In this document: positions 2,942 to 59,955 of the stretch, piece after piece
How positions within the stretch are numbered: the first letter of the stretch is position 1
Layout of the letters: each line of letters begins with the position of its first letter
NCBI GenBank assembly: GCA_017608025.1
Contig: JAFCGM010000004.1
Span: 90,744-154,743 of the forward strand
DNA from: Candidatus Pacearchaeota archaeon
Lineage (GTDB): Archaea; Nanobdellota; Nanobdellia; UBA10117; JABICX01
DNA length: 64,000 nt
Direction: 5' to 3'
Translations under genes and position numbers: made by a program
Notes under the pieces: model-generated
The model's database searches: none
What the model saw: only the letters and a program-made list of their open reading frames with translations
What the model was told of the DNA's origin: nothing

Positions 2942-3191
2942 ATATGTGTTATCGAGCAAGGCGAAAATAGCACTAGCCTGGGTCCCTTGGCTAAAAGGAC
3001 TGCTATACAAATAGATATAGAATAATAAAACAATAATAATGTTTTCCGCGAGCGCTTTTTCCAAAAGGGCTCTGTGGAGTCCCTTAGCTAGAAAGACTGA
3101 AATAATATGTGTTATCGAGCCGAAGGCGAAGATAGCACCTCTGTGTGTCTCTTCAGAAGAAGGACTGCCATAAAAATAGATATAAAATAAA
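2942..3191 (+). repeat. Intergenic composite repeat between two pilin genes. Two ~90-bp sub-repeats (2942-3040 and 3105-3191) bracket a 60-bp core (3041-3100).
   Basis: Sub-repeats atatgtgttatcgagc...ggcgaa(a/g)atagcac...aaggactgc(t/c)ata(c/a)aaatagatata(g/a)aataa. The core tttccgcgagcgctttttccaaaagggctctgtggagtcccttagctagaaagactg is ~90% identical to 53235-53292. GC content is above that of the flanking DNA. Confidence 0.65.
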
Positions 3192-3635
3192 ATGAAAAAA
3201 GCAGCAACAAACATAATATCTTTCGGAGCCTTAACCCTAATTGGCTTACTAGTTGTTAGTATGGTTTTTGTAATTTCTGAAAACATTGTTGAAAATGCAA
3301 ACAAAGAAATATCAAAAGAATTTGCAGAGAATATTTTCCTTCTTGCTGAAAGCAAAATAATTGAAATCGAAACTCTTGTAAACTACTCTCATTCTGGAAA
3401 TGAAATTTCAATAGAAATAAAAGAAAAAATACCTGAAAAGCTTGGAAGAAACTCTTATACAATTCAAGGAAAAAACAACTCTCTTTTATTCAAAACTCAA
3501 AATTATGGATATTCTAAAATAAAAAACATTTCCTGGTCAGACATGAATATTCAAGGAATTTGCTATTCTGGAAACAAAGAAATATCTCTTTCATTTAATT
3601 CCAGCCAATCAAATAAAACAATCACGCTATGCTGA
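3192..3635 (+). CDS. Pilin-like protein with a class III signal peptide.
   Basis: N-terminus MKKAATNIISFGALTLIGLLVV. Confidence 0.5.
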   Translation: MKKAATNIISFGALTLIGLLVVSMVFVISENIVENANKEISKEFAENIFLLAESKIIEIETLVNYSHSGNEISIEIKEKIPEKLGRNSYTIQGKNNSLLFKTQNYGYSKIKNISWSDMNIQGICYSGNKEISLSFNSSQSNKTITLC

Positions 3636-3673
3636 ACTATATGTTTATAAACTAGTTTTGTTTACTTTAAGCT

Positions 3674-8286: not shown

Positions 8287-8687
8287 TAAAATCAAAAAAA
8301 TCTCTTATTTACATAATGGAAACAATGCTTTGTGCAGTGGCTTTTGCGCTTATATTATTCTACTTTTCAAACTCGTTCTCAAGCCTTGAACAAGATACTT
8401 CTGAAATTGATACAGATAGCTTAATATATTCTTTAATTAATACTCGGGAAGTAAATATTTCATCAATTCCCAACATAAAAACAAGTTCAGAAAGAATAAT
8501 GGGTACAAGCTTCGAACTTAAAATGTTTTTTATAAATTCAAGCTGCTACATACTAAACTCCACAGATAGTCTTATTCAGAACTCAAATTGCTCATACTCA
8601 TTCAACACAAACAAAAATGTATTTTCCGGAGAAGCAAAAATAAGCACAGGAGAAACAATAAAAATATTATTTTGGAGGAAAATGTGA
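8277..8687 (+). CDS. Pilin-like protein with a class III signal peptide.
   Basis: N-terminus MELIKSKKSLIYIMETMLCAVAFALILF. Overlaps the upstream gene. Confidence 0.4.
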   Translation: MELIKSKKSLIYIMETMLCAVAFALILFYFSNSFSSLEQDTSEIDTDSLIYSLINTREVNISSIPNIKTSSERIMGTSFELKMFFINSSCYILNSTDSLIQNSNCSYSFNTNKNVFSGEAKISTGETIKILFWRKM

Positions 8688-8933
8688 TGAATAATAATAT
8701 ATTATCGAGGAAACTTATTTTTTGATGAAACTTTTTCAAAAGTTTCCGAAGATAGCGCCAGAAGGAACTTAGTTCCGCCTTGGGCTTTAGCCCTAGCCGA
8801 TTTTGCGGCTGAGTGTGTCCCTTGGCTAAAAGGACTTGAAGGAAAGTGTAATGAAAAATAAGTGACCTTTATAACTAAAATTTGGTCGCTGTCGCACAGT
8901 CCGGGCGAAACGGACAGAGGAAAATGTGATGAA
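8675..8933 (+). mobile_element. 224-bp family element (8693-8916) inserted exactly at an overlapping stop/start junction between two pilin genes. It is flanked by a 17-bp direct duplication (ggaggaaaatgtgatgaa at 8675-8692; gaggaaaatgtgatgaa at 8917-8933).
   Basis: Each copy keeps one gene end intact: copy 1 gives ...KM-TGA for the upstream gene; copy 2 supplies GAGG plus the ATG for the downstream gene. The insert has the tttgatgaaactttttcaaaagtttccg, gaagatagcgcc and gtgtcccttggctaaaaggact motifs plus GC-rich hairpins. Confidence 0.6.
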
Positions 8934-15283: not shown

Positions 15284-15358
15284 AGCGGGATGGGGCAGTC
15301 TGGAGTGCCCGTCGGGCTCATAACCCGAAGGTCGAAGGTTCAAATCCTTCTCCCGCTA
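15284..15358 (+). tRNA. tRNA-Met (anticodon CAT), initiator-type.
   Basis: Cloverleaf: acceptor AGCGGGA/TCCCGCT, anticodon stem TCGGG/CCCGA with three G:C pairs, loop CTCATAA, T-arm GAAGG-TTCAAAT-CCTTC. A1:U72 pair, archaeal initiator signature. Confidence 0.85.
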
Positions 15359-15543
15359 CTTACAAGGAGAAATTCAATAAACCTTTTGGGTTGGAAAACA
15401 TCCCTGAAGGTTTTCCGCCAGAAACGAACGTAGTTCGTGCCTATGAAATAGTGCTTTTTTAAAAGGGCTGTTTAGGGTTGGAAGACCTTTTTCAAAGGGA
15501 TTCCGTTTGAATCCTTCTCCCGCTACTTACAAGGAGAAATTCA
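15343..15543 (+). mobile_element. 133-bp repeat element (15377-15509) inserted at the 3' end of tRNAi-Met, flanked by a 34-bp direct duplication of the tRNA 3' end plus downstream sequence (15343-15376 and 15510-15543).
   Basis: Exact direct repeat AATCCTTCTCCCGCTACTTACAAGGAGAAATTCA twice. The internal sequence shares a >50-nt near-identical core (GGTTTTCCGCCAGAAACGAACGTAGTTCGTGCCTATGAAATAGTGCTTTTT) with 35579-35632. Confidence 0.6.
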
Positions 15544-15556
15544 TCAAAAAAATAAA

Positions 15557-16207
15557 ATGAAAACATGCGGTGTTGATGAAGCTGGAAGAGGACCTATTAT
15601 CGGACCAATGGTTCTTGCAGGTGTTTGCGCTTCAGAAAAAAAACTAGAAGAATTAAAAAAGCTTCATATAAAAGATTCTAAATTACTAACTCCAAAACGG
15701 CGGGAAGAACTCTTCAAAAAGATAATTGCAAAATATAAATATGTAATTGTAAAAATATCTCCGCAAGAAATTGATTCTAACAACGCAAATGGAACAAATT
15801 TAAATCGCCTTGAAGCAAAAACTATTGCTCGAATAATTATGGAAATGAAACCTAACAAAGTAATTGTAGATTCTCCAGAACCTGCTGATGAGCAAAAATT
15901 TGGCCGAACAATAAAAGAACTATGTAAAAACTGCAAACCTAAAATTTCAAGTGAACATAAAGCAGATACAAACCACATTATTGTTGGTGCAGCCTCAATT
16001 CTAGCAAAAGTAACTCGCGACAAGGAAATTGAAAAAATAAAAAAAGAAACAAAAATAGATATTGGCTCAGGATACCCTTCAGATGAAATAACAATAAAAG
16101 CATTAAAAGAGCATTTAAGTGAACTTGAACCTTATATAAGAAAATGCTGGGCAACATACAAAAGACTCAAAGGTGAAAAGTTCCAAGCTAATTTAGAAGA
16201 TTTCTAG
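15557..16207 (+). CDS. rnhB: Ribonuclease HII.
   Basis: N-terminal GVDEAGRGPIIGPMV catalytic motif, 216 aa. Confidence 0.9.
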   Translation: MKTCGVDEAGRGPIIGPMVLAGVCASEKKLEELKKLHIKDSKLLTPKRREELFKKIIAKYKYVIVKISPQEIDSNNANGTNLNRLEAKTIARIIMEMKPNKVIVDSPEPADEQKFGRTIKELCKNCKPKISSEHKADTNHIIVGAASILAKVTRDKEIEKIKKETKIDIGSGYPSDEITIKALKEHLSELEPYIRKCWATYKRLKGEKFQANLEDF

Positions 16208-16364
16208 TTTGGGGTTGGAAGACCTTTTCTAAAGGGATTCCTGTGAAAAGTTCCAAGCTAATTTAGGAGATTTCTAATTCAGTGCACAACAATGCAAATG
16301 TTTGTGCGCTAAGCGTGGGTCCCTTCGCTTTAAGGACTTCCAAGCTAATTTAGGAGATTTCTAA
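16177..16364 (+). repeat. Three direct copies of the rnhB 3' end (ttccaagctaatttag[a/g]agatttcta[g/a]) at 16180-16207, 16248-16274 and 16339-16364, separated by two short hairpin elements (16208-16247; 16278-16338).
   Basis: Copy 1 ends in TAG; copies 2 and 3 are identical to each other and end in TAA. Inserts carry the family motifs tttggggttggaagaccttttctaaagggattcc and gtgggtcccttcgctttaaggact. Confidence 0.6.
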
Positions 16365-18960: not shown

Positions 18961-19038
18961 GTTTGGGGTGAAGAAGTGAACTCTTTATTACAATTCACGC
19001 CTGAACTTGTTCAGACCTTTTTGAAAGGGATTCAAGTA
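18961..19038 (+). repeat. Repeat-family element in the divergent promoter region: gtttggggtgaag...[two hairpins]...acctttttgaaagggattcaag.
   Basis: Shares the tttggggt(t)gaagacc...ttt(c/g)aaagggattc ends with elements at 15470-15505, 16208-16245 and 35640-35670. Internal inverted repeats gtgaa...ttcac and ctgaac...gttcag. Confidence 0.5.
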
Positions 19039-19085: not shown

Positions 19086-19988
19086 ATGGTTTTAGAGTCA
19101 ATAATCCCAGTAAACATTGCTGAGGAAAGGCCGATTAAAATTCTTCCTACAAGTTTCATATATGCCACAATAGCCTTGTTCATTGCTTATTGGCTTTTCC
19201 CAACAGAAGCTAGCATGACTCTAATTTTTTTCACAGTAATGGCTTGCCTTCCTCTAATGCTTGGCCTAATCGGACTTGAAAAACTAAAAGCAGAAGCAAT
19301 TTTAAAGGAAATAGTTTTTGACTATGTATCTCAACCAAATAAAAAAACATCAAATCCTTTCAAAACCCACAAAAAATTCTTCCTGTTTATGACATACTTA
19401 ACAATTGGACTTGTTCTTGCATTCACTCTTTGGTATATTGTTCTGCCAACAAATATGGTAAATCTTCTTTTCAATTCCCAAATAAACACAATAAACACAA
19501 TAAACAGCAATGTGTCCCATCTAACTGGAAATGCAATAAACATTATATCTTATTTCAGCATAATACTTACAAACAATCTCAAGGTTTTGATTTTCTGTCT
19601 TCTCTTTTCTTTCATTTATGGAGCAGGAGCAATTTTCATTCTTGTTTGGAACGCCAGTGTTGTATCTATTGCAATTGGAAATTCAATTAGAGGTCTTTTA
19701 AGCAGTTACGCAGCAGCAACTGGAGCAAACACTCTTAGTCAGTATTTCTCTGCCTTCTCTCTTGGACTCTTGCGATATATTGTACATGGAATTCCTGAAA
19801 TCGGAGCATATTTTATTGGTGGGCTTGCTGGAGGAATGATTTCAATTGCAATTATAAAACACGAATTTATGAGTCCTAAATTCAAAATAATTTTAATGGA
19901 CGCCCTCCTGCTAATGCTAATTTCTGTCGGGCTTCTAATCCTTGCCGCACTTATAGAAACCTTTATCAGTCCACTAATTCCTATTTAA
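19086..19988 (+). CDS. SpoIIM-like (DUF95 family) polytopic membrane protein, paralogue 1.
   Basis: Multi-TM protein. Conserved core NNLKVLIFCLLFSFIYGAGAIFILVWNASVV is shared with the downstream paralogue. Confidence 0.5.
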   Translation: MVLESIIPVNIAEERPIKILPTSFIYATIALFIAYWLFPTEASMTLIFFTVMACLPLMLGLIGLEKLKAEAILKEIVFDYVSQPNKKTSNPFKTHKKFFLFMTYLTIGLVLAFTLWYIVLPTNMVNLLFNSQINTINTINSNVSHLTGNAINIISYFSIILTNNLKVLIFCLLFSFIYGAGAIFILVWNASVVSIAIGNSIRGLLSSYAAATGANTLSQYFSAFSLGLLRYIVHGIPEIGAYFIGGLAGGMISIAIIKHEFMSPKFKIILMDALLLMLISVGLLILAALIETFISPLIPI

Positions 19989-20331
19989 GTCATTGTTCTT
20001 TTGATGAAATTTTTTCAAAAAGTTTCCGCCAGCGCTTTTTCTAAAAGGGGCTTTTTTCTTTTCCGCAGCCGCTTTTTCTAAAAGGGGCTTTGGGGTTGGA
20101 AGACCTCTAAATTAGTTTTCTTTTTAGGACGGGTTTTTCTTTTTCTAAAAGAAAAAAGCATTTGGGAATGCAAACACTTTTCTAAAGGGTTTGCAGAGGC
20201 GTTCATCAGTCCGCTAATTCCTATTTAAGTCATTGTTCTTTTGATGAAATTTTTTTCCAAAATTTCAATTTTTTGCGAGCTTTGTTCTTGCTCTAAGAAA
20301 GCTTAAATAATACTCTTACTACAATTAATTT
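19965..20331 (+). repeat. Composite repeat element between the SpoIIM paralogues, flanked by a 52-bp direct duplication of the paralogue-1 3' end (19965-20016 and 20205-20258). It contains tandem ttccgc(c/a)agc(g/c)gctttttctaaaaggggct units and the terminal gggaatgcaaacacttttctaaagggtttgc hairpin.
   Basis: Direct repeats read directly from the sequence. The terminal hairpin GCAAAC...GTTTGC abuts the second target copy, as at the Hef and radA loci. Confidence 0.6.
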
Positions 20332-21174
20332 ATGGTTTTAGAATCAATAATTCCAATAAAAACAGCAGAAAAGCAACCAATAGAAATGCTGCCTCTGGCT
20401 TTTTTGTATGCTTCAATTGGAATTTTCATTGGATACTGGATTTTTCCAAATTACGCAAGCCTCTCTTCTGTTTTCTTCACAGTCCTTGCTCTAGTGCCTT
20501 TAATGGTAAGTTTCATAAAATTCGAGGAAAAAGATGTTTTCAAAAAGCAGGAAAAATGGCATCACAAAAAAGCAATTCCTTTTTTTTGCTTTATGTTTCT
20601 CGGCCTTGTTTTTGCTTATTCATTTTGGTTCATAGTGTTCCCTTCTTCTCTAATTGGAAGTGTTTTTGGAATTCAGCTTAACACAATAAATCAAATAAAC
20701 AGCCAAGTAACTGGAAATTCTGCAGCAGTATCGTTTTTTTCAGCAATTTTATCAAACAATCTCAAGGTTTTGATTTTCTGTCTTCTCTTTTCTTTCATTT
20801 ACGGAGCAGGAGCAATTTTCATTCTTGTTTGGAATGCAAGCGTGGTTTCAGCAGCAATTGGAAATGGAGCTAGAGCATTAATTTCAAAACTTGTAGAAAC
20901 AACAAACCTACCAGGAATTGCAGTGTATTTCTCTGCCTTCTCTCTTGGGTTACTTAGGTATATGTCTCATGGAATTTTCGAAATGATTGGCTATTTCCTA
21001 GGCGGGCTTGCTGGTGGACTGATTTCTGTTGCAATTCTCCGTCACGAATTTATGGATAATAATTTCAAAAAAGTAATGCTCGATTCATTAACCTTAACTC
21101 TTTTTTCAATAGCAGTTTTGATTCTGGCTGCAGTAATAGAAGTTACTTTCTCACCCTTAATTCCATTTAAATAA
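20332..21174 (+). CDS. SpoIIM-like (DUF95) membrane protein, paralogue 2.
   Basis: ~45% identical to 19086-19988 overall, but shares an 83-bp tract (20755-20837) with only 2 mismatches to 19572-19654. Confidence 0.5.
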   Translation: MVLESIIPIKTAEKQPIEMLPLAFLYASIGIFIGYWIFPNYASLSSVFFTVLALVPLMVSFIKFEEKDVFKKQEKWHHKKAIPFFCFMFLGLVFAYSFWFIVFPSSLIGSVFGIQLNTINQINSQVTGNSAAVSFFSAILSNNLKVLIFCLLFSFIYGAGAIFILVWNASVVSAAIGNGARALISKLVETTNLPGIAVYFSAFSLGLLRYMSHGIFEMIGYFLGGLAGGLISVAILRHEFMDNNFKKVMLDSLTLTLFSIAVLILAAVIEVTFSPLIPFK

Positions 21175-21205
21175 TCTTTTTATATGTAAAGCTAAAAATA
21201 AAGAA

Positions 21206-23782
21206 ATGGACGAACTTCCCGAACAAAATCAGGAAATAATTGAAAAAAGAAAGAAAAAAATATTAAATTTCCTAAAAAAATTCTCAAAAGGAAAAGATTT
21301 TCTTGAAAATCCATTTGTAAGCATTGGCGCAATAATTTTCACAATAATTTTAGGAGTTTACATTCGAATTCAAAATCTTCCGCATCTTGCAAACAAATAC
21401 CTTCTCGGTCTTGACCCTTACTTTTTCTTTCGCTATGCTCAAACTCTTTTTGAGAAAGGTACTCTTCCAGTAATTGACTATATGCGTTATTCTCCAGTAG
21501 GCTACCCAACTGCAAAATTTAGTGTTTTAACTCATTTATTTGTTTATTCTTACAAAATTGCAAACCTATTTTATCCAATGACACAAAAACAATGGCACAT
21601 AATTTATCCTCCAGTTATAACTGCAATCTCTTTTGTATTTTTCTTTCTAATGCTTGCAAAGCTTTTCAATAAAAAAACCGCAATAATTGGAACAGCCCTT
21701 TTAGCAACAATTCCTGCTTATATATATAGAACTGGTGCAGGATTTGCTGACCACGAAGCTTTTGCCATGCTTTTCATGTTTGCAGCAATGTATTTTTTTG
21801 TCCTTGCATTCAAATCACTAAAAGCAAAGAAAATAATTATTTTTTCAATAATGTCTACAATTTCCGCATCTCTTATGGCTGCTTCATGGGGTGGAGTAAA
21901 ATTCTTAACAGTTTCACTAGCAATATTTTTGTTTACTCTCTCTTTCCTCTCAACTCTAAGCAAAAAGCAAATTATTTCCAGCAGCATATTTATTTTACTT
22001 TTTATCCCGCTAAGTTCTCTCACAACAACACTTTCAATCAAAATTTCTGCTTTAACTTCAATAGATAATCTTATTCTTCTGGCAGCACTTGGCTTTGTAA
22101 TCATAACTCAATTTGTAAAGCAAACAAAAAATCCAAAAATCAAAGAATATTTGTCAAAAACAAAACTGCCTAATTCAATAAACGGAACAATAATTTATAT
22201 AATTTTCAGCATTCCTGTTTTATTAATTTCAATTATAACAGGCATTTTTAATCCGCAGACAATCATAGAAAACCTCTTTGGTGTTGGACTTTCAAGATTT
22301 CAGACAACTGTTTCTGAAAGTATGGTGCCGCAAATCAAAGCTTCATGGATGTCTTCTAGCGCTTTTGGAACAATAACTTTTCTTTTAATATTCATAAGCG
22401 CAGTTTTCCTGATATATTGCATTTTCAAAAACTCAAAAAGAAATGCAGTTGTTTTCAGTTCAATAACTTCAATTTTCTTTTTGATTTTCATCGGAAGCAA
22501 TTATTCTGGAGATTTCCAGAGAAAAGCAATTGGTTACTTTCTTGCCCACTCTTACATGTATTTATTAATATTACTCTTTGCAGGAGCTGCAGTTTATTAT
22601 GTTTACATTTACAAAAAAAGCAAATCAAACTTTGAAAAATTTTCACAAATAAAATGGCAGAACATATTTATTCTTTCCTTCTTTTTAGTAAGCCTTCTTG
22701 TCGCAAAAGGAAGCACTCGACTTTTATTTGCACTGGCTCCTTTTGCAATGATTGTAATTGCCTTTTTCTTCTCAAAACTTATTGAAAAATCTCTGGCAAA
22801 CAAAAAAATAATTTGGATTTCGTTTGTGGTTGGAATCCTCTTTATTATTATAATTATAAGCAATTCAAAAGCAAGTTACATACTTAATTCATACGCTGGT
22901 TCTGGCTATCCTGGCCAATGGGAGTCTTCAATGACTTTCTTAAGAGAAAACACTTCTGAAGATTCTGTAATTGCTCATTGGTGGGATTATGGCTACTGGA
23001 CACAAACAGAAGGTAAAAGAACAACAGTTGGAGATGGTGGAAATCTTATGGGATGGAACCATCAGCTTGGAAGATATGCTATGACTGGAAAAAACGAAAC
23101 AGAATATTTAGCATACTTAAAGACACACAAAGTCACTCATCTTCTTTACTCTGAAGAGGAAATTGGAAAATATCATGCTTTCTCATTTATTGGTTCTGAC
23201 GAAAACCTAGATAGGGAAAGTACAATTGGAATTTTCAGCTTAAGAGATGTAAAAGAAGTAAGAAACGGAACTCGTTATATATATCAAAGCGCATGGGGGC
23301 TTGACAAGGATTATGTAATCGGAAATACTGTTTTTGAGCAAGGTGCAGACGCTTTGCTTGGACTTTCATATGACTTAAGAAACAACAAGACAGAAAATCC
23401 ACTAGCATACTTGTACAGAAACGGGCAGCAATACTCTTTCCCTGCAGAATGCGTGTGCTATGACTCAAAATGCAGGCACTATGAATCTAAAGAAAATTCT
23501 TTCCCTGGCTGCTTTGTAATTGCTCCATTCTTTTCACAAGAAAATGTTAATGAACGAGGAACAGCATTTTATTTGTCTCCAAAAGTTAATGGAGGATTGT
23601 TTGCAGAACTTTATATAAAAAACCAAAAACTGCCATACTTCAATGAAGTTTACAACGACAAAACACCTCTCGGGCTTTACAATGGAAGGCTTATTGGTCC
23701 AATAAGAATTTGGGAAGTTTCATATCCTTCTTGGGTTAAGGAAGAACCTAACAAATACATTAAAAGAAGTGTGTATGGCTAA
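21206..23782 (+). CDS. aglB: Archaeal oligosaccharyltransferase AglB (STT3 family).
   Basis: 13-TM N-terminal domain followed by a periplasmic domain carrying the diagnostic WWDYGYW motif. 858 aa. Confidence 0.85.
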   Translation: MDELPEQNQEIIEKRKKKILNFLKKFSKGKDFLENPFVSIGAIIFTIILGVYIRIQNLPHLANKYLLGLDPYFFFRYAQTLFEKGTLPVIDYMRYSPVGYPTAKFSVLTHLFVYSYKIANLFYPMTQKQWHIIYPPVITAISFVFFFLMLAKLFNKKTAIIGTALLATIPAYIYRTGAGFADHEAFAMLFMFAAMYFFVLAFKSLKAKKIIIFSIMSTISASLMAASWGGVKFLTVSLAIFLFTLSFLSTLSKKQIISSSIFILLFIPLSSLTTTLSIKISALTSIDNLILLAALGFVIITQFVKQTKNPKIKEYLSKTKLPNSINGTIIYIIFSIPVLLISIITGIFNPQTIIENLFGVGLSRFQTTVSESMVPQIKASWMSSSAFGTITFLLIFISAVFLIYCIFKNSKRNAVVFSSITSIFFLIFIGSNYSGDFQRKAIGYFLAHSYMYLLILLFAGAAVYYVYIYKKSKSNFEKFSQIKWQNIFILSFFLVSLLVAKGSTRLLFALAPFAMIVIAFFFSKLIEKSLANKKIIWISFVVGILFIIIIISNSKASYILNSYAGSGYPGQWESSMTFLRENTSEDSVIAHWWDYGYWTQTEGKRTTVGDGGNLMGWNHQLGRYAMTGKNETEYLAYLKTHKVTHLLYSEEEIGKYHAFSFIGSDENLDRESTIGIFSLRDVKEVRNGTRYIYQSAWGLDKDYVIGNTVFEQGADALLGLSYDLRNNKTENPLAYLYRNGQQYSFPAECVCYDSKCRHYESKENSFPGCFVIAPFFSQENVNERGTAFYLSPKVNGGLFAELYIKNQKLPYFNEVYNDKTPLGLYNGRLIGPIRIWEVSYPSWVKEEPNKYIKRSVYG

Positions 23783-23822
23783 ATACAAAACCTTTTAAGC
23801 ATTTTTACTAATATGAAATATT

Positions 23823-25594: not shown

Positions 25595-25628
25595 AAACAA
25601 TTTTAAAGCTTAAAAAAATAATCTTAAT

Positions 25629-31988: not shown

Positions 31989-31989
31989 T

Positions 31990-35443: not shown

Positions 35444-35557
35444 GTTAAGTATGAAAAAGTAATACCTATTTAAAAAGATTGTTGTTTTTTGGCAGACGAA
35501 AAGCAGATACTTTTATAAAGTAATACTTTTTCATAATATCAATGAAAAATAAATTTA

Positions 35558-37886: not shown

Positions 37887-38015
37887 GAATTACTAAACCT
37901 TCTGAAATATAAAACATTAGTGGATACTGGACAACCAACTGAGAGCTTTTTATTTCAAAATATAGAACTTACCATATAAACCTTTAAATTCAAAATTTGG
38001 AAAAGTATAACAGAG

Positions 38016-40440: not shown

Positions 40441-40473
40441 AATCTTTTTATTTTTCTCTGAGTTTATTAGTTC

Positions 40474-44286: not shown

Positions 44287-44543
44287 GATGCTCACCCTTA
44301 CATTCCATTTTAATTTACCTTGATTTTCCGTGAACACTTTTCTTAAAAGGGTTCTTGTTTTTTTGATGAAACTTTTTCTAAAAGTTTCCGTGAACACTTT
44401 TCTTAAAAGGGTTCTTGTTTTTTTGATGAAACTTTTTCTAAAAGTTTCCGTGAACACTTTTGCAGGCATCGTATTTTATTCGCCTGCTCAGAGTGCCAGC
44501 TGATCTCTCAGCTGTGGTGCTCACCCTTACATTCCATTTTAAT
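44287..44543 (+). repeat. Repeat locus upstream of tRNA-Cys. 25-bp direct repeats (44290-44314 and 44519-44543) flank two and a fraction tandem 60-bp units (44325-44384, 44385-44444) plus one 52-bp two-hairpin module (44462-44513).
   Basis: Unit tttccgtgaacacttttcttaaaagggttcttgtttttttgatgaaactttttctaaaag. Module GCAGGCatcgtattttattcGCCTGCtcagagtgcCAGCTGatctctCAGCTG. Confidence 0.65.
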
Positions 44544-52373: not shown

Positions 52374-52532
52374 AATTTATTTTTAAGCGACTTTTCATTC
52401 CCAATGTTTATCGCCAGAAGCAAACTTAATTTGCGCCTAAGCTATGCTTAGTAGGGATCTCTTCGCTAGAAAAACACAAACAAAGAAATCATTGAAAAAT
52501 TTCTTAATTGCAAAATCATTGAAAAAAACAAA

Positions 52533-52739
52533 TTAATTATAATCTTTCCTTCTAGAATTTAATTCCACATTTTTACCAATAAAAACAATGCCGTCCTTCA
52601 TCATCTGGTCCTTGCCTTCTTCAGCCATTATCAAAAGATATGCTGCATGCTCAAAAAAAGCGTCAAAATCCTTATACCTGCCTTCTTCAATAAACTTCTT
52701 AATCTTATCTTTTTTCTCTTTTGAAATTTTTATTTCCAT
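52533..52739 (-). CDS. Small ribbon-helix-helix (CopG/Arc-like) DNA-binding protein candidate.
   Basis: Beta-alpha-alpha pattern MEIKISKEKKDKIKKFIEEGRYKDFDAFFEHAAYLLI. 68 aa. Confidence 0.4.
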   Translation of the reverse strand: MEIKISKEKKDKIKKFIEEGRYKDFDAFFEHAAYLLIMAEEGKDQMMKDGIVFIGKNVELNSRRKDYN

Positions 52740-52835
52740 TACTCCTCCATTGCACTGCGCGTAAACGTATGTGCAATCAAATTGCGAGCTTTTTCGAAAG
52801 CTCTGAAATTTTTATTTCCGTTTTATTCCTGCTCC
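52740..52835 (+). repeat. Direct duplication of the RHH gene 5' end (gaaatttttatttcc[a/g]tt...tcctcc) at 52722-52750 and 52803-52835.
   Basis: Read directly. The second copy lacks the start codon. Confidence 0.5.
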
Positions 52836-52993
52836 TTATCAACAAGAACAATAACTCGTTTTCCAATTAATTTTTTCGGAAGTGTGATTTTTCCAGATGA
52901 AGCATTGTTTTTAATAACATATCTTGTTAAAATTTGGTTAAAGTTTATTGGCTTCAACTTAACACTTCCCCGAACTTTCGCATTAATTCCCAT
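52823..52993 (-). CDS. 56-aa AbrB/MazE/SpoVT-like swapped-hairpin DNA-binding protein. Not in the supplied ORF track because it is under 60 aa.
   Basis: Translation MGINAKVRGSVKLKPINFNQILTRYVIKNNASSGKITLPKKLIGKRVIVLVDKEQE. The GKITLPKKL..GKRV motif resembles the AbrB swapped hairpin. ATG at 52991-52993 (rc), TAA at 52823-52825 (rc). Confidence 0.35.
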   Translation of the reverse strand: MGINAKVRGSVKLKPINFNQILTRYVIKNNASSGKITLPKKLIGKRVIVLVDKEQE

Positions 52994-53359
52994 TAAATTA
53001 ATTCCTCATCTTTCTAATTTGTTTCTTTGGGCAACTTGCACTTTCTTTTCTAAAGAAAGGGCAGAGCATTAATTCCCATTAAATTAATTCCTCGTCTCTC
53101 TAATTTGTTTCTTTGGGCAACTTGCACTTTCTTTTCTAAAGAAAGGGCAGAGCATAACTTTTATAGTCTAATTAAAGACTACAATATTTAAAAACCTTAT
53201 GTGCATCCTTGCTCTACACGATCATATTCGTCATTTTCCGCAAGCGCTTTTTCCAAAAGGGCTCCATGAGTCCCTTGGCTAGAAGGACTATAACCAGAAT
53301 TAAACCGTTGTGTGAAGCTCTGCTTTACACGACCAGCCTGTGTCCCTTGGCTAGAAGGA
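52979..53359 (+). repeat. Two tandem 87-bp units (52979-53065 and 53066-53152), each beginning with a copy of the AbrB-like gene start. These are followed by a ~120-bp GC-richer family element (53235-53359) carrying two gtcccttggctagaaggacta hairpin motifs.
   Basis: Tandem units are near-identical. The 53235-53292 segment is ~90% identical to 3041-3100. Confidence 0.6.
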
Positions 53360-55201
53360 CTATTTAATCTTCTTTAAAATAGCGTGATTTCCCTTCCAGT
53401 TAATTGCTTCTTTAAGAACATCCTTAAGCGTGGTTGCAGGAATAATTTTTATTTTGTTTTTCAAATTAGAACTTAAAATAATATCTTTTTCATTTGCAGC
53501 GGGAACAATAACTTTCTTCATTCCTGCCTCAATAGCAGCCTCAACTTTTTGAGTTACACCACCAACAGGAAGAACATCTCCTCTAACAGACAAACTTCCA
53601 GTCATTGCTACTTCCTGATTTATTGGCAAGTTCTTTATTGCAGAAATAATGCATGTTGCAACAGATATGCTCGCACTATCACCTTCAACACCTTCATATG
53701 TTTGGAGAAATTGAACATAAACATCATATTTCTTCAAATCTTCATTAAACCATTTCTTAACAATTGCAGAAACATTTGTAATTGCTTCTTTTGCAATTTT
53801 TCCAAGTTGGCCTGTAGCAACAATTTTCCTGTCTTTTTTTGATTCAGATGGAACTACTTCTCCATCAATTGGCAAAACAATTCCTGAAAAATTGCCATTG
53901 CTTCCAATAACAGCAAGACCATTAACTCGCCCAACAAACTCTCCTTTTGACTTTATAACATTGTAAGCTTTCTTGTCATTAATAACTCTATCAGCAAGCT
54001 GCTGCTCCAAACCTCTAGAAAGCTTTCTTGCATCAATAACATCTTTCTCTGTAACAACTTTATGATCTCGTTCATTTGCTAAATCTCCTGCTGCTCTTAC
54101 AAGCCCTCCCAAATCTCTCAATCTTAAAGTTAGTTTTTTCTTTTTTCCAGACATTCTTCTTGCAACAGAAATAACTTCTTCAACTGCTTTTTTAGTGAAA
54201 TGCGGAATCTTGCCATCCTTAACAACTTCTTGTGCAACAAACCTTACCAGTTTGTCTCGGTTTTCTTTGTTATCTTCCATATAATCATTCATATAAATTT
54301 CATAACCATATCCCTTAAGCCGCGACCTTAAAGCAGGATGTATGTTTTTAACAGTTTCAAGATTTCCTGCTGCAATTAAAACAAAATCACAAGGAACTTG
54401 TTTAGTTTTAACTAATGCTCCTGCGCTTCTCTCAGACTGGCCTGTAATTGAAAATTTCTTTTCCTGCATTGCAGTCAAAAGCTCTTGTTGAGACTTTGGC
54501 TCAAGTGTTGAAACTTCATCAATAAACAAAACTCCGCCATTTGCTTTATGAATCATTCCTGCTTCAACTCTCAAATGCGCTGGAGTTGCAAGCCCGCCAG
54601 ACTGAAAAGGGTCGTGTCTTACATCTCCAAGCAAAGCACCAGCTTTTGCTCCAGTAGCATCAACAAAAGGTGCTTTTTTTGCTCCAGAATTATTAACAAT
54701 AAGCTTTGGCTCAACAATTTTTTTATTTTTTTGCGGCATGCTAAGTGAAAGCATAATTATTCCAAAAAAAATAAACCCTCCAATTAAAGAAGCAGCAGCC
54801 ATCACATCTCCGTACTGGCTCCGAATAAACCAAGGAATCATCAATACAATAAATCCCAAAACCAAATAAAGCAGTTTCCTACTCTTCATAAAGCTCTGTG
54901 CTTTAATCTTTGCAGAGTTAACAAAAGAACTTCCCTGACCTGCTTTTACCTCACTAATTATTGGCTCATTTTCATCTTCTTCATTTGGAAAAACAAGTAT
55001 ATCTCTCAATAAGCTTTTTGGCAAAAGCTCTGAAAGCGCCTGCCCAATCATTGATTTTCCCGTCCCTGGAGTTCCAATAAGAAAAACATGACGTCTTTGC
55101 TTCGCTGCCTTCTTAATTATGTTTACAGCTTCATCCTGCCCAATAATCTGGTCAACAATTTTGCTCGGGACTTTAATTTCTTTAGTGGTTTTGAATTTCA
55201 T
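53360..55201 (-). CDS. lonB: Archaeal membrane-bound Lon protease (LonB).
   Basis: AAA+ Walker A GTPGTGKSM with two TM helices inserted in the ATPase domain. C-terminal Lon protease domain with catalytic Ser (VGGVTQK...). 613 aa. Confidence 0.9.
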   Translation of the reverse strand: MKFKTTKEIKVPSKIVDQIIGQDEAVNIIKKAAKQRRHVFLIGTPGTGKSMIGQALSELLPKSLLRDILVFPNEEDENEPIISEVKAGQGSSFVNSAKIKAQSFMKSRKLLYLVLGFIVLMIPWFIRSQYGDVMAAASLIGGFIFFGIIMLSLSMPQKNKKIVEPKLIVNNSGAKKAPFVDATGAKAGALLGDVRHDPFQSGGLATPAHLRVEAGMIHKANGGVLFIDEVSTLEPKSQQELLTAMQEKKFSITGQSERSAGALVKTKQVPCDFVLIAAGNLETVKNIHPALRSRLKGYGYEIYMNDYMEDNKENRDKLVRFVAQEVVKDGKIPHFTKKAVEEVISVARRMSGKKKKLTLRLRDLGGLVRAAGDLANERDHKVVTEKDVIDARKLSRGLEQQLADRVINDKKAYNVIKSKGEFVGRVNGLAVIGSNGNFSGIVLPIDGEVVPSESKKDRKIVATGQLGKIAKEAITNVSAIVKKWFNEDLKKYDVYVQFLQTYEGVEGDSASISVATCIISAIKNLPINQEVAMTGSLSVRGDVLPVGGVTQKVEAAIEAGMKKVIVPAANEKDIILSSNLKNKIKIIPATTLKDVLKEAINWKGNHAILKKIK

Positions 55202-55531: not shown

Positions 55532-55581
55532 TAAGCATCACCGTCTTAAAAAATACACATCATACTACAATAAAAAGATTT

Positions 55582-55770
55582 CTAAAATATAACGTATGCT
55601 TCTTAAATTATATTTCTTTTAGTGCAGGTTTTCTTTGTAAAAGAAAAAGTGCAAAGGTCTCTAAAATATAACGTATGCTTCTTAAATTATATTTTTTTCT
55701 TTGTAAAAGAAAAAGTGCAAAGGTCTCTAAAATATAACGTATGCTTCTTAAATTATATTTCTTTTAATAC
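55582..55770 (+). repeat. Three tandem direct repeats (79, 66 and a partial ~45 bp) upstream of the TraB-family gene.
   Basis: Unit ctaaaatataacgtatgcttcttaaattatattt(c)tttt...ctttgtaaaagaaaaagtgcaaaggtct. Units begin at 55582, 55661 and 55727. Confidence 0.7.
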
Positions 55771-55857: not shown

Positions 55858-56514
55858 ATGTCTCTCAAAATACTTGGCTCATCGCACATATCAGGAAAAT
55901 TCGCAAGCAAGGTTTATGACACAATAATCGTTGAAGAACCAGAAATTGTTGCAGTTGAATTAGACTTAGCTCGCGCCCGCGCTTTATTTTCAAAACAAAA
56001 ACAAAAAATTTCATTTAAAACAATAAGGAATTTCGGCCTTTTTGGGTTCTTTTTTGCACTTATTGGATCTAAAATACAGAAATATTTAGGTAAAAAAGTT
56101 GGTTTTGAACCTGGAATTGACATGAAAAAGGCAATTATTGCAGCAAAAAAAGTAAATTCAAAAATAATTCTCATTGACCAGCCAATGAGTAAAACACTTC
56201 AAAAACTTTCCAAAATTAGTTTTAAAGAAAAAGTAAAACTTTTCTTTTATTTAATTTGGCCATTTCAAAAAAAAGCTAAAATGTCTTTTGATTTGTCTTC
56301 TGTGCCAAATGAAAAAACAATTAATAAAATAATAAAAGATTTTAAAGAAAAATTTCCTGGAATTTATTCGGTGCTTATTAAAGAAAGAAATGATTTTATT
56401 GCAAAAAACTTAATTGATTTAAAAAGAAAATTTGAAAATTTAAACATTGTAGCTGTTTTGGGAGCAGGACATGTTTCTGAAGTAAAAAAATTAATTAAAA
56501 ATTTTGAAGAATAA
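55858..56514 (+). CDS. TraB/PrgY-family protein (Tiki/TraB fold).
   Basis: N-terminus ILGSSHISGKFASKV, GHVSEV near the C-terminus. 218 aa. Confidence 0.6.
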   Translation: MSLKILGSSHISGKFASKVYDTIIVEEPEIVAVELDLARARALFSKQKQKISFKTIRNFGLFGFFFALIGSKIQKYLGKKVGFEPGIDMKKAIIAAKKVNSKIILIDQPMSKTLQKLSKISFKEKVKLFFYLIWPFQKKAKMSFDLSSVPNEKTINKIIKDFKEKFPGIYSVLIKERNDFIAKNLIDLKRKFENLNIVAVLGAGHVSEVKKLIKNFEE

Positions 56515-56526
56515 TTAAAAATATTT

Positions 56527-56818
56527 TTAAAAAAATTATTTTAATATAATATTTTTTTAAATATAAATTAAAACAAAAAAAAGCATTTTTTAACTGAAAT
56601 ATGCAAAAAAAATAGCAAAAATTAAATAAAAAATTAAATAAAAATTATTTTTTATTAAATTAAAACAAAAAATAAGTAAATTTAATGAAAAATCATAAAA
56701 AATACATAAAAATCATGAAAAAAAGATTTAAAAAAATTATTTTAATATAATATTTTTTTAAATATAAATTAAAGCAAAAAAAGCAAGAGATAAGTTTTTA
56801 TGTTCTGAAATATACAAA
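56527..56818 (+). repeat. Extremely AT-rich (>90% AT) intergenic region containing a ~200-bp tandem duplication. The 59-bp near-identical cores are at 56527-56585 and 56727-56785, with weaker similarity continuing about 30 bp beyond each.
   Basis: tttaaaaaaattattttaatataatatttttttaaatataaattaaa(a/g)caaaaaa(a)agca occurs twice, 200 bp apart. Confidence 0.7.
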
Positions 56819-56823
56819 TTATC

Positions 56824-57672: not shown

Positions 57673-57673
57673 A

Positions 57674-59872
57674 ATGCAATTCTTAAAGCAAAAGCTAAAT
57701 TTAAGAGTGTATCAGCAAACAATATTAAACACAGCTCTTAGCAAAAATACTCTTTGCGTAATCCCTACTGGTCTTGGAAAAACCTACATAGCAATAGCTC
57801 TAATTGGCTTAAAATTAAAAGAAAAAAAAGCAATTTTTCTTGCTCCAACTAAGCCTCTTGTAACGCAGCACTTTAACACCTTTAAGCAGTTTTTTGATTC
57901 TGAACCCGAAGAAATAATTGAAGTTTCTGGAACAGTTCCTTCAAAAAAAAGAAAAGAAATGTATAAAAAAGCAAAAATAATTTTTGCAACCCCACAAACA
58001 ATTGAAAATGACATAATTACAAAAAGAATACTTCCTGAGGAATTTTCAATAGCAATATTTGATGAAGCTCATCGCGCAGTAGGAGACTATGCATATGTTT
58101 TCCTTGCAAAGCAATTCAAAGAAAGTAGAATTCTAGCATTAACAGCTTCTCCCGGTCATGAAATTGAAAAAATAAATGAAATAAAAAATAACCTGTTTAT
58201 TCAAGAAATTGAAAAAAGAACACAAAAAGACAAAGATGTTAAAGAATATGTAAAGGAAATTAAATTTCAGTACAAAAAAGTTGAGCTTCCAAAACTTATG
58301 AAAGCAATACAAAAACACCTTAAAATGGCAATGAAAGAATATCTTGTCCAACTAAAGGAATTAGATATTATTGACTCAACCAGCTTGTCAAAATTCAGCA
58401 GAAAAAACCTTCTAAATCTTCAAACTAAACTTCGTACGCAAATAAGCACAGGAGATTTTGAAATAATGCGCGCCCTATCAATAACAGCAAGACTAATAAA
58501 AATAAATTATGCCCTTCATCTTCTTGAATCTGAATCGCTGAATGCCTTGAATGATTATTTAAAGTCAATTTGGAAAGATTCAAAAACAACAAAAACAAAA
58601 GCAGTAAAAGCTCTTGTCCAAAATTTCCATATTCGTGCAGCATACAGGCTTTCTCAAGAATGTAAAGAAAAGAAAATAGAGCACCCAAAAATGCTTGAAC
58701 TGAAAAAAACAATTAAACAGGAATTGAAAAAAAATCCCAACTCAAAAATACTAATTTTCACTGAATACCGAAGCAATGTTGAGCAAATTGTACAAGAATT
58801 ATCTGAATTTAAAATTCATCAGTTTGTTGGCCAATCCTCTTTAAAGAAAAAAGGAATGTCGCAAAAAGAGCAGATTAAAGCAATAGAAGATTTAAAAACA
58901 GGAAAAGTTAATGTTCTTGTCTGCACTTCTGTAGCTGAAGAAGGCCTTGACATTCCAAAAGTGGATTTAATTGTTCTTTATTCTCCAATTCCTTCTGCTA
59001 TTAGGTCAATACAAAGAAAAGGAAGAACTGGCAGACAGGAAGTTGGAAATCTTGTAGTCCTTTTAACAAAAGACACAAAAGATGAAACTTATCATTGGAT
59101 TTCTGTAAATCGGGAAAGGAAAATGAATCAAGTGCTTACAAACATGTCACAGTCAAAAAGCAAGCTAATAACTCTTGACTCCTTTCAAAACAAAAGCAAA
59201 GAAAAGCAAACTGTTGAAAATAGGGAAGAAATAAAAGTATATTGTGATTGCCGCGAATCAGGAATATTAAAATATCTCATAGAGCACGGCGTTACAGTTC
59301 TTCCAAAAAAACTAGAAGTTGCAGACTTCATTCTCTCTGATGATATTGCAGTTGAAAGAAAGGAAGTAGAAGATTTTACTTCTTCTTTAATTGACCAACG
59401 CCTTTTTAACCAAGCAACTGAACTAAAACGAAACTTCGAAAAACCGCTTTTTATTATTGAAGGAGACTTATCAGAAATTTTCTTTTCAAGAAACATAAAT
59501 CCTGATGCTCTCCGCTCAGCAATGATCTCTTTGCTTGTTGATTATCAAATACCTTTTTTATTCAGTTCAAACAAGCAGGAAACTGCAAAATACCTTTACC
59601 TCATAGCTAAAAGAGAACAAATTGAAAAGAAAAAATTAATTTCCTTACGCGGCTCCAAAAGATTAACTTCAATTCCAGAAATGCAGCAATTCTTTATTGA
59701 AGGTTTGCCTTTAATTGGTCCTGCTCTTACAAAAAAGCTCCTAAAGCACTTCAAAACACCAAAAGCTTTGTTAAATGCCTCAAAAGAAGAGCTTCAAAAT
59801 GTTAAAAACCTCGGCCCAAAAAAAGCAGAAAAAATCAAAATGATTCTTGAAGAAATATATGATGAAGAATGA
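57674..59872 (+). CDS. hef: Hef (helicase-associated endonuclease for fork-structured DNA; XPF/FANCM homologue).
   Basis: SF2 helicase motifs (GLGKT, DEAH), XPF nuclease ERK motif (AVERKEVEDF), C-terminal HhH2. 732 aa. Confidence 0.85.
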   Translation: MQFLKQKLNLRVYQQTILNTALSKNTLCVIPTGLGKTYIAIALIGLKLKEKKAIFLAPTKPLVTQHFNTFKQFFDSEPEEIIEVSGTVPSKKRKEMYKKAKIIFATPQTIENDIITKRILPEEFSIAIFDEAHRAVGDYAYVFLAKQFKESRILALTASPGHEIEKINEIKNNLFIQEIEKRTQKDKDVKEYVKEIKFQYKKVELPKLMKAIQKHLKMAMKEYLVQLKELDIIDSTSLSKFSRKNLLNLQTKLRTQISTGDFEIMRALSITARLIKINYALHLLESESLNALNDYLKSIWKDSKTTKTKAVKALVQNFHIRAAYRLSQECKEKKIEHPKMLELKKTIKQELKKNPNSKILIFTEYRSNVEQIVQELSEFKIHQFVGQSSLKKKGMSQKEQIKAIEDLKTGKVNVLVCTSVAEEGLDIPKVDLIVLYSPIPSAIRSIQRKGRTGRQEVGNLVVLLTKDTKDETYHWISVNRERKMNQVLTNMSQSKSKLITLDSFQNKSKEKQTVENREEIKVYCDCRESGILKYLIEHGVTVLPKKLEVADFILSDDIAVERKEVEDFTSSLIDQRLFNQATELKRNFEKPLFIIEGDLSEIFFSRNINPDALRSAMISLLVDYQIPFLFSSNKQETAKYLYLIAKREQIEKKKLISLRGSKRLTSIPEMQQFFIEGLPLIGPALTKKLLKHFKTPKALLNASKEELQNVKNLGPKKAEKIKMILEEIYDEE

Positions 59873-59955
59873 TTTGGGGATGCAAACACTTTTTCAAAGG
59901 GTTTGCTGCTGAAAAAATCAAAATGATTCTTGAAGAAGAATTTAGTGAGGAGTAA
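59825..59955 (+). mobile_element. 35-bp hairpin element (59873-59907, tttggggatGCAAACactttttcaaaggGTTTGCtgct) inserted at the Hef 3' end with a ~48-bp duplication of the gene tail (59825-59872 and 59908-59955).
   Basis: Copy 1 encodes ...AEKIKMILEEIYDEE*. Copy 2 encodes ...AEKIKMILEEEFSEE*. The first 30 bp are identical and the ends have diverged. Confidence 0.55.

Follow-up and report, generated by a model that had tools for sequence, protein, structure and literature searches.

Repetitive extragenic palindromes and bacterial interspersed mosaic elements (REP/BIME) are non-autonomous bacterial repeats mobilised by RAYT, an IS200-like HUH transposase. Each is an imperfect palindrome some 35 nt long whose 5' tail is conserved and single-stranded; they lie outside genes and mostly just after them, form mosaic clusters, and keep their structure by compensatory change. 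For single-strand transposons (IS200/IS605), orientation follows the chromosome strand rather than the genes. The haloarchaeal palindrome-associated transposable elements (PATEs), which derive from IS200/IS605, are transposase-free, lack terminal inverted repeats, have palindromes near their ends, appear mobile in versions of 52 bp, and 'do not cause TDs' (target duplications; PMC3119063). Direct repeats of variable length (8–514 bp) are made by the insertion sequences IS1549 and IS1634, by a mechanism that is not known (PMC2266710), and tiny hairpin repeats of several families (RHE) are reported to occupy the intergenic space of compact sponge mitochondrial genomes (PMC2800124). Here we describe a family of hairpin modules in a 64-kb stretch of a Candidatus Pacearchaeota archaeon chromosome (contig JAFCGM010000004.1; "the window" is this whole stretch, positions 1–64000). 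Most of these modules sit between two copies of whatever DNA they struck, be it a gene end, a gene start, a tRNA 3' end or an operon junction. That they are mobile hairpin elements generating long duplications is, in our judgement, highly probable. A search of the published literature brought up no account of them.

Hairpin modules lie between long direct repeats

Thirteen intergenic loci of the window carry a mosaic of short hairpin modules, designated a to f. A Hamming scan with the consensus of each module, on which the statement about orientation is based throughout, gave 29 matches, all on the + strand, compared with 0–0.15 in Markov shuffles for both strands together; a pattern for modules b and c (hereafter b/c) matched four times where none is expected. 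Exact 16-mers recurring 25–400 nt downstream filled 15 bins of 300 nt, compared with 0.13 in shuffles. Most module loci are bracketed by direct repeats of 17–85 nt that contain the end or start of a gene, the 3' end of a tRNA or an operon junction, and every event can be written as X–insert–X (copies numbered X1, X2 and so on), with an intact copy of the struck sequence remaining. The inserts are 28–230 nt long and free of open reading frames (ORFs). An earlier sequence-only reading of the window had pointed out these modules and duplications, and they are present at every locus it named, with coordinates good to a few bases; its list was incomplete in that the locus at 55550–55760 had been missed. 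Its statement that module c always lies directly against the second target copy stands for the b/c modules, with a gap of 0–3 nt, and module e has to be corrected to a weak hairpin.

Four loci illustrate the anatomy (all loci are given on the + strand). At the 3' end of hef (59825–59955), the 34-nt module c (59873–59906) immediately follows the stop codon and separates two copies of the gene's last 48 nt: X1 (59825–59872) encodes ..EEIYDEE* and X2 (59907–59955) encodes ..EEEFSEE*, a flanking repeat that a repeat search measures as 50 nt at 82% identity. The end of the RNase HII gene (rnhB; 16173–16364) is present in three copies as the product of two nested insertions: X1 (16173–16207, to the stop) is followed by module b (16208–16241), X2 (16243–16277), a second insert ending in module e (16278–16338) and X3 (16339–16364). 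At the 3' end of tRNA-Met (tRNA 15284–15359; locus 15338–15548), a 44-nt repeat at 91% identity runs from the T-loop to 17 nt beyond the tRNA, with X1 at 15338–15381 and X2, again from the T-loop, at 15505–15548; the composite insert between them consists of a b-like module, a 55-nt module and module b (15471–15504), then 'gtt'. Finally, an operon stop/start junction (8675–8933) is split by a 225-nt insert (8692–8916) with modules a, f2-like and e. Here the 17-nt repeat is the overlapping stop, ribosome-binding site (RBS) and start: the upstream gene has its stop in the left copy (gaggaaaatgtgatgaa, 8675–8691), and the downstream gene has its RBS and start in the right one (8917–8933).

Modules also occur within modules. 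A module f lies inside the loop of a c-like hairpin (44290–44543), a two-hairpin insert lies inside a module b (18961–19038), and insert-plus-repeat units stand in tandem at the radA end and at the start of an AbrB-like gene. The same composite of about 90 nt (the 55-nt module CGCCAGAAACGAACGTAGTTCGTGCC... plus a b-type module) is found at 15416–15504 and 35590–35671, upstream of the unrelated rnhB and nucleotidyltransferase genes; composites therefore move or recombine as units. Module a contains a TGATGA...CCGA pattern and was considered as a box C/D K-turn; this was rejected, the pattern being absent from the other modules and guide spacing being lacking.

Among the scanned ORFs of the window (about 90 aa or longer), none matched a transposase, an integrase, or a Cas or HUH protein, and all matches were to housekeeping families, which upholds the earlier statement that 64 kb contain no transposase or integrase gene. 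Searching the window against Rfam returned two tRNAs only, both at the gathering score and at E ≤ 0.1.

Insertion sites differ among sister genomes

Corresponding loci were compared in four contigs of related genomes, reached via RNase HII and Hef homologues (loci outside the window carry L numbers). Insertion sites are polymorphic among these sister genomes. At the rnhB end, module b and a spare gene end are found again in L001 (83% protein identity); in L003 (72%) the insert is another one, a CAGCTG hairpin, and its repeat starts at the same base as in the window, and L002 (76%) is empty and without duplication. The operon junction that holds a 225-nt insert in the window is an unbroken ATGA overlap in L003. 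The hef end of L076 has no spare copy; 3' of the gene (L076:5446–5715) there is a tandem array with a unit of about 70 nt, made of the 5' half of module b and a two-hairpin insert; what is duplicated here as "target" is itself one half of a different module. This composite is also present at 20094–20160 of the window, where its two half-module copies differ in subfamily (b and c). Upstream of the PRC-barrel gene, the inserts of the window and L076 differ, and the repeats measure 38 and 28 nt, respectively, with the same starting base. For tRNA-Met, which lies on the other strand in L002, that contig has two extra partial 3' ends with modules between them.

Taken with the 72 further b/c loci described below, these empty, same-insert and different-insert sites bear out the proposal of a non-autonomous family of inserted elements. 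The alternative that the gene ends were duplicated in tandem long ago, independently of any insert, fails on the same empty sites and inserts.

Stitching of strain variants around a short repeat during metagenome assembly would also give such structures. The copies often look like alleles of different strains, and all sequences come from metagenomes or metagenome-assembled genomes (MAGs). We nevertheless reject this explanation as scarcely credible. The same X1–b–X2 structure was found at rnhB in the independent assembly of a relative as diverged as L001 (83% protein identity), the structures recur across many studies and assemblers, and they are shorter than assembly k-mers, so that the junctions must exist in the reads.

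A single-strand hairpin in one orientation

The b/c unit has a conserved 9-nt 5' tail (TTTGGGRWT) and a stem of 11 bp, in which one position is an A.G mismatch; its loop is made of pyrimidines and lies within TTTTCYAAA. Among 42 distinct b/c variants the 5' tail and the loop context are invariant, and one stem position is nearly always A.G. The free stem pairs covary (CG/GC/AU at 11–33; CG/AU/UA/GC at 14–30), with a covariation score that none of 500 shuffles reaches and that is lower in slid registers. As delimited by the repeats, the element spans TTTGGGRAT... to ...GGGTTTGC; its palindrome does not reach the ends, and there is no inverted counterpart of the 9-nt 5' tail. Folding as single-stranded DNA gave z-scores of -4.5 to -5.5 relative to shuffles for modules a, c and f, moderate values for d and weak ones for b and e; the top strand of module c is more stable than its complement (-9.5 versus -7.1 kcal/mol). 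Judged from the sequence variants, the recognised unit is a single-strand hairpin.

All 29 module matches share one orientation, though three loci of the window adjoin minus-strand genes. This strict single-strand orientation, on which the sequence-only reading is silent, argues against an ordinary staggered double-strand cut. It also counts against double-strand transposition of a minimal MITE (miniature inverted-repeat transposable element) by an IS1634/IS1549-like DDE transposase or a Cas1-type integrase, with widely and variably spaced attack followed by gap repair: symmetric ends should insert both ways. Long direct repeats of 8–514 bp in IS1549/IS1634, a family common in Euryarchaeota (PMC2266710), are what such an explanation would call on, together with casposons, which are reported to target tRNA and gene 3' ends with target duplications (PMC5137440). 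Our elements do not have inverted repeats as ends, a synaptic complex would have very little DNA to assemble on in 34 bp, the spacing produced by Cas1-type integrases is fixed, and no such transposase or Cas1 lies in the window or beside any of the 72 loci. We regard MITE transposition as quite improbable.

A second polarity concerns the genes: in about 30 cases the intact gene lies 5' of the element. The T-run of the element is present on the top strand only, and read in this direction the element is probably a terminator that works one way, stopping transcripts that arrive from its 5' side. A one-way terminator would be harmless after a gene and harmful before it, which may be why the intact gene is nearly always 5', and it may likewise account for the antisense orientation in tRNA introns (see below).

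The modules might be nothing other than host signals (terminators, RNA-stability or protein-binding sites) kept by selection and shuffled by homologous recombination only, the repeats being by-products. The covarying stem fits this idea, as do the sense-strand T-run after + strand genes and its antisense placement in tRNA introns, the almost constant 5' position of the intact gene, and the signs of recombination between alleles in the spare copies. However, a unique gene end followed by a hairpin and its own duplicate needs a non-homologous event, and orthologous sites are empty, filled and differently filled. Copies are also present at places in which termination would bring no benefit or do damage (in promoters, amid minus-strand genes, inside one another), and the same 34-mer occurs in genomes of 28–61% GC. 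We consider a role as host signals without mobility very improbable.

The 34-nt module recurs across archaeal phyla

Modules b and c, the only ones traced outside the window, were searched with the exact pattern TTTRGGNNTGNAANNNCTTTTNNAAAGGGNTTNC, which has 24 fixed positions. This gave 72 further loci, 32 in a set of archaeal and bacterial genomes with one genome per species and 40 in JGI metagenomes, a few pairs among them being the same sequence fetched twice (L012/L072, L024/L034). Restriction of the modules to the window, which the earlier reading had named as a finding that would refute it, therefore fails, and the anatomy of flanking repeats is seen again. The named hosts are all archaeal and belong to at least six phyla, including Altiarchaeota, Iainarchaeota, Woese-/Pacearchaeota, Aenigmatarchaeota and Thermoplasmatota, with a GC content of 28–61%. 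The commonest 34-mer variant is identical in the window and in Altiarchaeota from three studies. One contig is binned as an 'uncultured Planctomycetales bacterium' (L034, CAYTIW010000030.1); its element and 180 nt of flanks, including a tRNA-Lys, match the archaeal L024, and by this match the contig is probably mis-binned.

When the two flanks of each copy were aligned with each other, about half of the copies had repeats, of 16–103 nt and mostly gapless on both sides (e.g., 99/103 in L005, 66/66 in L038, 52/53 in L008, 45/46 in L018, 31/31 in L051 and 30/30 in L074); the remaining half or so of the external b/c copies have no flanking repeat. Arrays of the form (X-element)n-X with identical units are found in L007, L018/L032, L035, L038, L051 and L073. 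Their likeness to CRISPR arrays was considered and rejected, the "spacers" in the Altiarchaeota arrays being copies of the adjoining target and not diverse sequences. All-against-all clustering of 633 ORFs from the 72 loci showed local synteny only, with no protein family recurring beside the b/c element. The element is absent from 2.9 million viral contigs (IMG/VR, 0 matches), and module e has one IMG/VR match, which is probably fortuitous.

The sequence-only reading had the elements homing to gene ends. Gene-end copies are indeed present, and beside them we find gene starts with RBS or promoter, stop/start junctions, tRNA 5' parts, plain intergenic DNA and tRNA introns. The apparent homing is largely what survives in a compact genome.

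Elements in and next to tRNA genes

At least eight different tRNAs show the same arrangement: the element, then GGNGTTA (GATGTTA at tRNA-Pro), then a repeat that begins at T-loop position 57. In L005, L006 and L063/L023/L051 it is the tRNA 5' part with its upstream DNA that is duplicated. Among the copies without a repeat, at least 10 loci have the element inside canonical tRNA introns of 46–53 nt (aragorn with introns), always antisense. These intron-borne copies are in tRNA-Arg-tcg, Ser-tga/cga, Glu-ttc and Met-cat (L016, L017, L027, L028, L029, L042, L052, L060 and L075), and the 34-nt module makes up most of the length of these introns. Elements could seed tRNA introns or shelter in them.

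Two side observations concern tRNA genes. In the Aenigmatarchaeota loci L021, L022, L026 and L031, inspection by eye places the module within the T-loop region of tRNA-like sequences. In L001 (398–768), tRNA-Met is interrupted after the anticodon by about 370 nt holding a short ORF (MKKISKREGLMLYWCEGDKY...) followed by frame-shifted coding-like sequence; from these remnants the insert resembles a decayed LAGLIDADG homing-endonuclease intron. The tRNA-Met of the window is intron-free.

In archaea, an intact tRNA with a partial copy of its 3' part beside it is the classical signature of an integrase. Plasmids or viruses integrated at tRNA or gene ends could have left attL and attR and later been deleted down to a short remnant; repeats of 17–50 nt fit att sites, and Sugahara et al. 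describe a recombinase-bearing element leaving a tRNA 5' fragment (PMC3293823). Deletions would then have to have occurred independently dozens of times and each stopped at precisely the same 34 nt. The repeats also span gene starts, promoters and intergenic DNA, the array units are identical, and no integrase remnant lies in the window or the 72 loci. The explanation by integrase scars is extremely improbable and close to refuted.

Spare copies carry coding-type differences

The spare gene-end copies are neither simple nor decaying duplicates and differ from the used copies mainly at synonymous sites, with the substitution pattern of coding sequence. Of the codon changes in 11 used/spare pairs, 33 are synonymous and 16 non-synonymous; junction codons account for several of the latter, and all six changed stop codons are still stops. 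Nine of the 10 changed codons in L033 are synonymous at 24% divergence, and in L050 all five are, with a stop-to-stop change in addition. With one copy constrained and the other free, we estimate that about 43% of changes would be synonymous and 36% of stops retained; the data are above both values.

The spare ends resemble ends in use elsewhere. The spare Hef C-terminus of the window (..EEEFSEE*, against ..EEIYDEE* in the used copy) matches its relatives, of which the closest has ..DEEFSEN* and more distant ones ..EEEFK.., and the spare copy therefore keeps the ancestral-type end. For rnhB, the used end is EDF* in both the window and L001 and the spare ends are GDF* and DEF*, respectively; DEF* is the used end of L003. 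The simplest reading of these patterns would be that filled alleles pass between diverged lineages by recombination. In young events, the repeats are identical (L038, L051 and the inner copies of L018), and a true duplication is therefore made at insertion.

A possible mechanism and its main competitor

We give about even chances to the following reading: these are very small (about 28–80 nt) non-autonomous hairpin elements, moved in trans by strand-specific, replication-coupled insertion, whose alleles are spread by recombination. A trans-acting enzyme encoded elsewhere would recognise the single-stranded hairpin and link it into the strand that is synthesised discontinuously, at two positions separated by up to about 100 nt (roughly one Okazaki fragment). 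Such joints could connect the 3' end of an Okazaki fragment still being extended with the 5' flap displaced from the fragment after it. Copying the stretch between the joints anew would give the target duplication. Elements may land in one another and in their own spare copies, which would build the mosaic clusters, and unequal recombination between X copies may produce the (X-element)n-X arrays. Recombination, whether homologous or homology-assisted, would then carry filled alleles from one diverged lineage to another, X serving as the right-hand arm; a lineage would thereby keep its native end as the spare, which may be why the spare copy resembles another functional allele. Given the long repeat, an insertion in the first or final tens of bases of a gene, a tRNA or an overlapping stop/start junction leaves an intact copy on the gene body and a spare beyond, and in a compact genome such gene-sparing insertions are the survivors.

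The placement on the discontinuous strand comes from the right edge of the window, which holds the Orc1/Cdc6 gene (62495–64000, - strand) and the gene of the PolD small subunit (61052–62443). The GC skew of the + strand is negative throughout and monotonic. From this uniform skew and the Orc1/Cdc6 gene, the replication origin probably lies just to the right of the window, beyond position 64000, and the + strand of the window would be the strand made discontinuously. The insertion chemistry at the replication fork is the more tentative part of our reading and, taken singly, we think it somewhat doubtful.

Several observations weigh against this reading. The orientation rule comes from one 64-kb replichore arm in which tandem copies are not independent, element strand and local GC skew showed no association in the short external loci, and a d-like module lies on the opposite strand in the sister locus L003. 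The 24 fixed positions of the search pattern inflate the apparent conservation outside the free positions. Some junctions have 7–27 extra bases, and in very young events, too, the 7–9 nt that follow the element often reproduce the target imperfectly. Repeats of events that should be independent begin at the same base (rnhB in the window and L001 compared with L003; the PRC-gene locus in the window and L076), which a non-specific flap model does not predict. Lastly, the L033 alleles are 24% divergent and their crossover coincides exactly with the boundary of the element, which is hard to explain by ordinary homologous recombination.

The junctions also bear on polymerase template switching (copy-choice), in which no dedicated enzyme takes part: the nascent strand jumps by microhomology to a hairpin, copies it, returns upstream and re-copies X. 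The imperfect bases after the element resemble lineage-typical tails: GGNGTTA/GATGTTA, where the T-loop reads GTTC, TGTTAGA in L038, and TGAAAA at rnhB, hef and radA. This suggests, from the junction sequences, a right-hand joint aided by short homology, which is the main argument for template switching. First spare-copy bases that look both like the target and like the lineage tail (GTTA versus T-loop GTTC in at least eight tRNAs, TGAAAA, and ATTCC in L033) would follow from it, as would the variable repeat lengths, the 0–27 extra junction bases, the mosaic composition of modules and a strand bias, which is expected of a replication error. In most events, however, the element begins precisely at TTTRGG on the left (target | TTTRGG) and its boundary on the right falls within 0–3 nt, and many junctions lack microhomology (present at L033, hef and the tRNAs and absent at rnhB, microhomology is non-decisive). 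The identical 34-mer in the window and Altiarchaeota, together with the covarying stem, points to recognition by a protein, and template switching leaves the coding-type differences of the spare copies unexplained. It is in our judgement an unlikely explanation, if one to be reckoned with.

Further loci and genomic context

The other loci of the window repeat the same anatomy with variations. Around the SpoIIM-like gene 3' end (19955–20330), a 72-nt repeat at 88% identity, made of the gene end and module a (X1 19955–20026, X2 20195–20266), encloses an insert (20027–20194) with two d modules, half of a module b, a two-hairpin module and module c (20161–20194), and more hairpins follow X2 up to 20330. 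This region (19086–21174) has two tandem SpoIIM-like paralogues with the largest module cluster of the window between them. The nested radA 3' end (40064–40448) has an outer repeat of gene end plus module a (40082–40154 and 40376–40448); its interior holds a c-like module (40178–40211), a spare gene end (40213–40248) and two 73-nt units, each an 18-nt gene end with the 55-nt two-hairpin module f.

Repeats at two loci hold a gene start plus upstream signals (35541–35690 and 52723–53151). At the nucleotidyltransferase gene (35541–35690), a spare start (about 35541–35557) and the functional start (35675) are separated by a composite insert (35558–35671) that contains a composite of roughly 95 nt also present at tRNA-Met. 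The region 52723–53361 covers the starts of two small minus-strand genes, one unnamed and one AbrB-like by sequence. A repeat of about 16–30 nt (52723–52738 and 52806–52821) surrounds a two-hairpin insert at the unnamed gene. The AbrB-like gene has two 86-nt units (52980–53151, 98% identity), each made of 45 nt of gene start and upstream DNA and a 41-nt c-like module; 3' of these units come d (53235–53263), e (53268–53289) and another e (53340–53361), which adjoins the LonB stop. Upstream of the minus-strand PRC-barrel gene (55550–55760), three 38-nt target copies are spaced by a 28-nt hairpin (TTTTCTTTGTAAAAGAAAA).

Mostly intergenic repeats are found at 2943–3190 and 44290–44543. The former, next to a pilin gene, has X1 at 2943–3025, an insert at about 3026–3105 with modules d (3043–3071) and e (3077–3098), and X2 at 3106–3190, with a 68-nt repeat at 76% identity; X itself contains an e module (2980–3001). 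The latter, between tRNA-Cys (- strand) and a minus-strand membrane-protein gene, has a 25-nt outer repeat (about 44290–44316 and 44507–44533) around two and a fraction copies of a 60-nt unit (c-like hairpin plus module a), with module f in addition. At the divergent promoter locus 18961–19038, where a b-like module is split by the nested two-hairpin insert, no gene-end duplication was seen. Fragmentary modules 3' of rtcA (52400–52470) comprise a relative of the 55-nt module and a degenerate e.

The window is an AT-rich stretch of archaeal chromosome (32% GC) whose larger ORFs are all housekeeping genes: type IV pilus ATPase and platform proteins, Hel308, SecDF, RNase HII, AspRS, a glycosylation cluster, RPA, RadA, CysRS, a topoisomerase, SerRS, RtcA, LonB and Hef. 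The nearest named relatives of its proteins are in Candidatus Woesearchaeota and DPANN archaea. The glycosylation/polysaccharide cluster (21200–37900) has a lower GC content (down to 28.7%) and is free of modules except at its edge (35558–35674); it is either a recent island or a region where insertions are not tolerated. A very AT-rich intergenic region between a TraB-like and an M50 peptidase gene (56487–56782) contains a 95-nt direct repeat at 85% identity, with its copies about 200 nt apart, which is unrelated to the hairpin modules.

Implications

The duplications of the hairpin elements allow them to land harmlessly in gene ends, tRNAs and the overlapping operon junctions of streamlined genomes; we know of no REP, MITE or PATE that brings its own duplication of 16–100 nt as such an insurance. 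If the anatomy reflects the mechanism, the chemistry of transposition or insertion would be a hitherto undescribed one. Taken at its widest, the proposal would be a previously unrecognised movement of DNA in archaea, in which a structured single strand is inserted at the fork, between two points of the lagging strand no more than one Okazaki fragment apart, with gene-sparing duplications of up to about 100 nt, by a factor common to so many archaeal phyla that one 34-mer would work in Woesearchaeota, Altiarchaeota, Aenigmatarchaeota and Thermoplasmatota, the family being a possible present-day source of tRNA introns and partial tRNA copies; we rate this whole as rather unlikely. If true, it would tie mobile DNA to the origin of archaeal tRNA introns and tRNA gene fragments. 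More practically, gene calling in MAGs of DPANN archaea and Altiarchaeota will be led astray by the spare gene ends and starts and by the additional ATG or stop signals. Spare copies also preserve alleles of other lineages and so form a record of recombination between lineages, and a near-identical 34-mer across phyla offers a handle on gene flow among archaeal phyla that share a habitat.

Comparison with known systems

Elements that integrate by other routes share parts of the anatomy. With casposons and CRISPR integration, the archaeal hairpin elements have in common tRNA or gene 3' ends as targets, a gene left intact, tandem arrays, and a duplicated target that can equal or exceed the insert, as when CRISPR integration doubles a repeat of some 30 bp to enclose a spacer of some 35 bp. 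They differ in that the joints of those systems have a fixed spacing (14–15 bp in casposon Cas1 integration, or one repeat length), whereas ours varies six-fold. CRISPR and casposon systems also insert arbitrary DNA, unlike the conserved family of hairpin inserts, and no Cas1 family match was obtained in the window. Integron attC sites, which are also reported in Archaea, are characterised by RYYYAAC/GTTRRRY core boxes at the 3' end of ORF cassettes, in arrays, and by IntI. We rejected this assignment: the module is 34 nt long compared with 57–141 nt for the site, the arrays contain no ORF cassettes but only repeated pieces of target, no IntI was found, and the GTTAGA-like tails are a resemblance only. 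Nor do the loci qualify as tRNA-targeting tyrosine-integrase elements, with only 34–130 nt between the tRNA and the partial copy. By location within a tRNA intron, the subset of at least 10 intron-borne loci, and this subset only, agrees with archaeal bulge-helix-bulge tRNA introns.

Organelle hairpin elements (sponge RHE and fungal double-hairpin elements) are likewise tiny hairpins invading the intergenic space of compact genomes, in eukaryotic organelles rather than archaea; to our knowledge, long gene-end duplications, strand specificity and identity across phyla are unreported for them. IS1634/IS1549 are, as far as we know, the only prokaryotic elements with long direct repeats of variable length, a feature matched by the 16–103 nt of the archaeal elements. 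They are, however, autonomous DDE elements of 1.5–2 kb with inverted termini, whereas the hairpin elements measure 28–80 nt, have no such termini and insert in a single orientation. A MITE would have terminal inverted repeats and a short duplication of fixed length; our elements lack the former, and their duplications vary over 16–103 nt within one module. No parent insertion sequence with matching ends was found in the 64-kb window or the 72 loci.

The closest systems are those with single-strand logic, which would explain the strand bias. Like PATEs, the elements are archaeal, have sub-terminal palindromes without inverted termini and are too short to code, features that belong to the PATE definition; they differ in being defined by long duplications, and no IS605-type gene lies in the window. 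PATEs insert 3' of a fixed tetra- or pentanucleotide, whereas the boundaries of the hairpin elements show a T-loop preference and loose TGAAAA/GTTAGA motifs only. The size of about 35 nt, the imperfect palindrome with its single-stranded 5' tail, the extragenic position mostly just after genes, the mosaic clusters, the lack of autonomy and the compensatory changes are all shared with REP/BIME. Long target duplications, which are the rule for the window elements (non-intron copies), are absent from REP/BIME, which are also bacterial and form genome-specific families, whereas the archaeal 34-mer is common to several phyla. A REP-flanked RAYT gene, by which REP/BIME are defined, is present neither in the window nor beside the 72 loci. 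In form, therefore, these elements are small non-autonomous repeats closest to REP/BIME and PATEs, with a real chance that they represent a new insertion mechanism.

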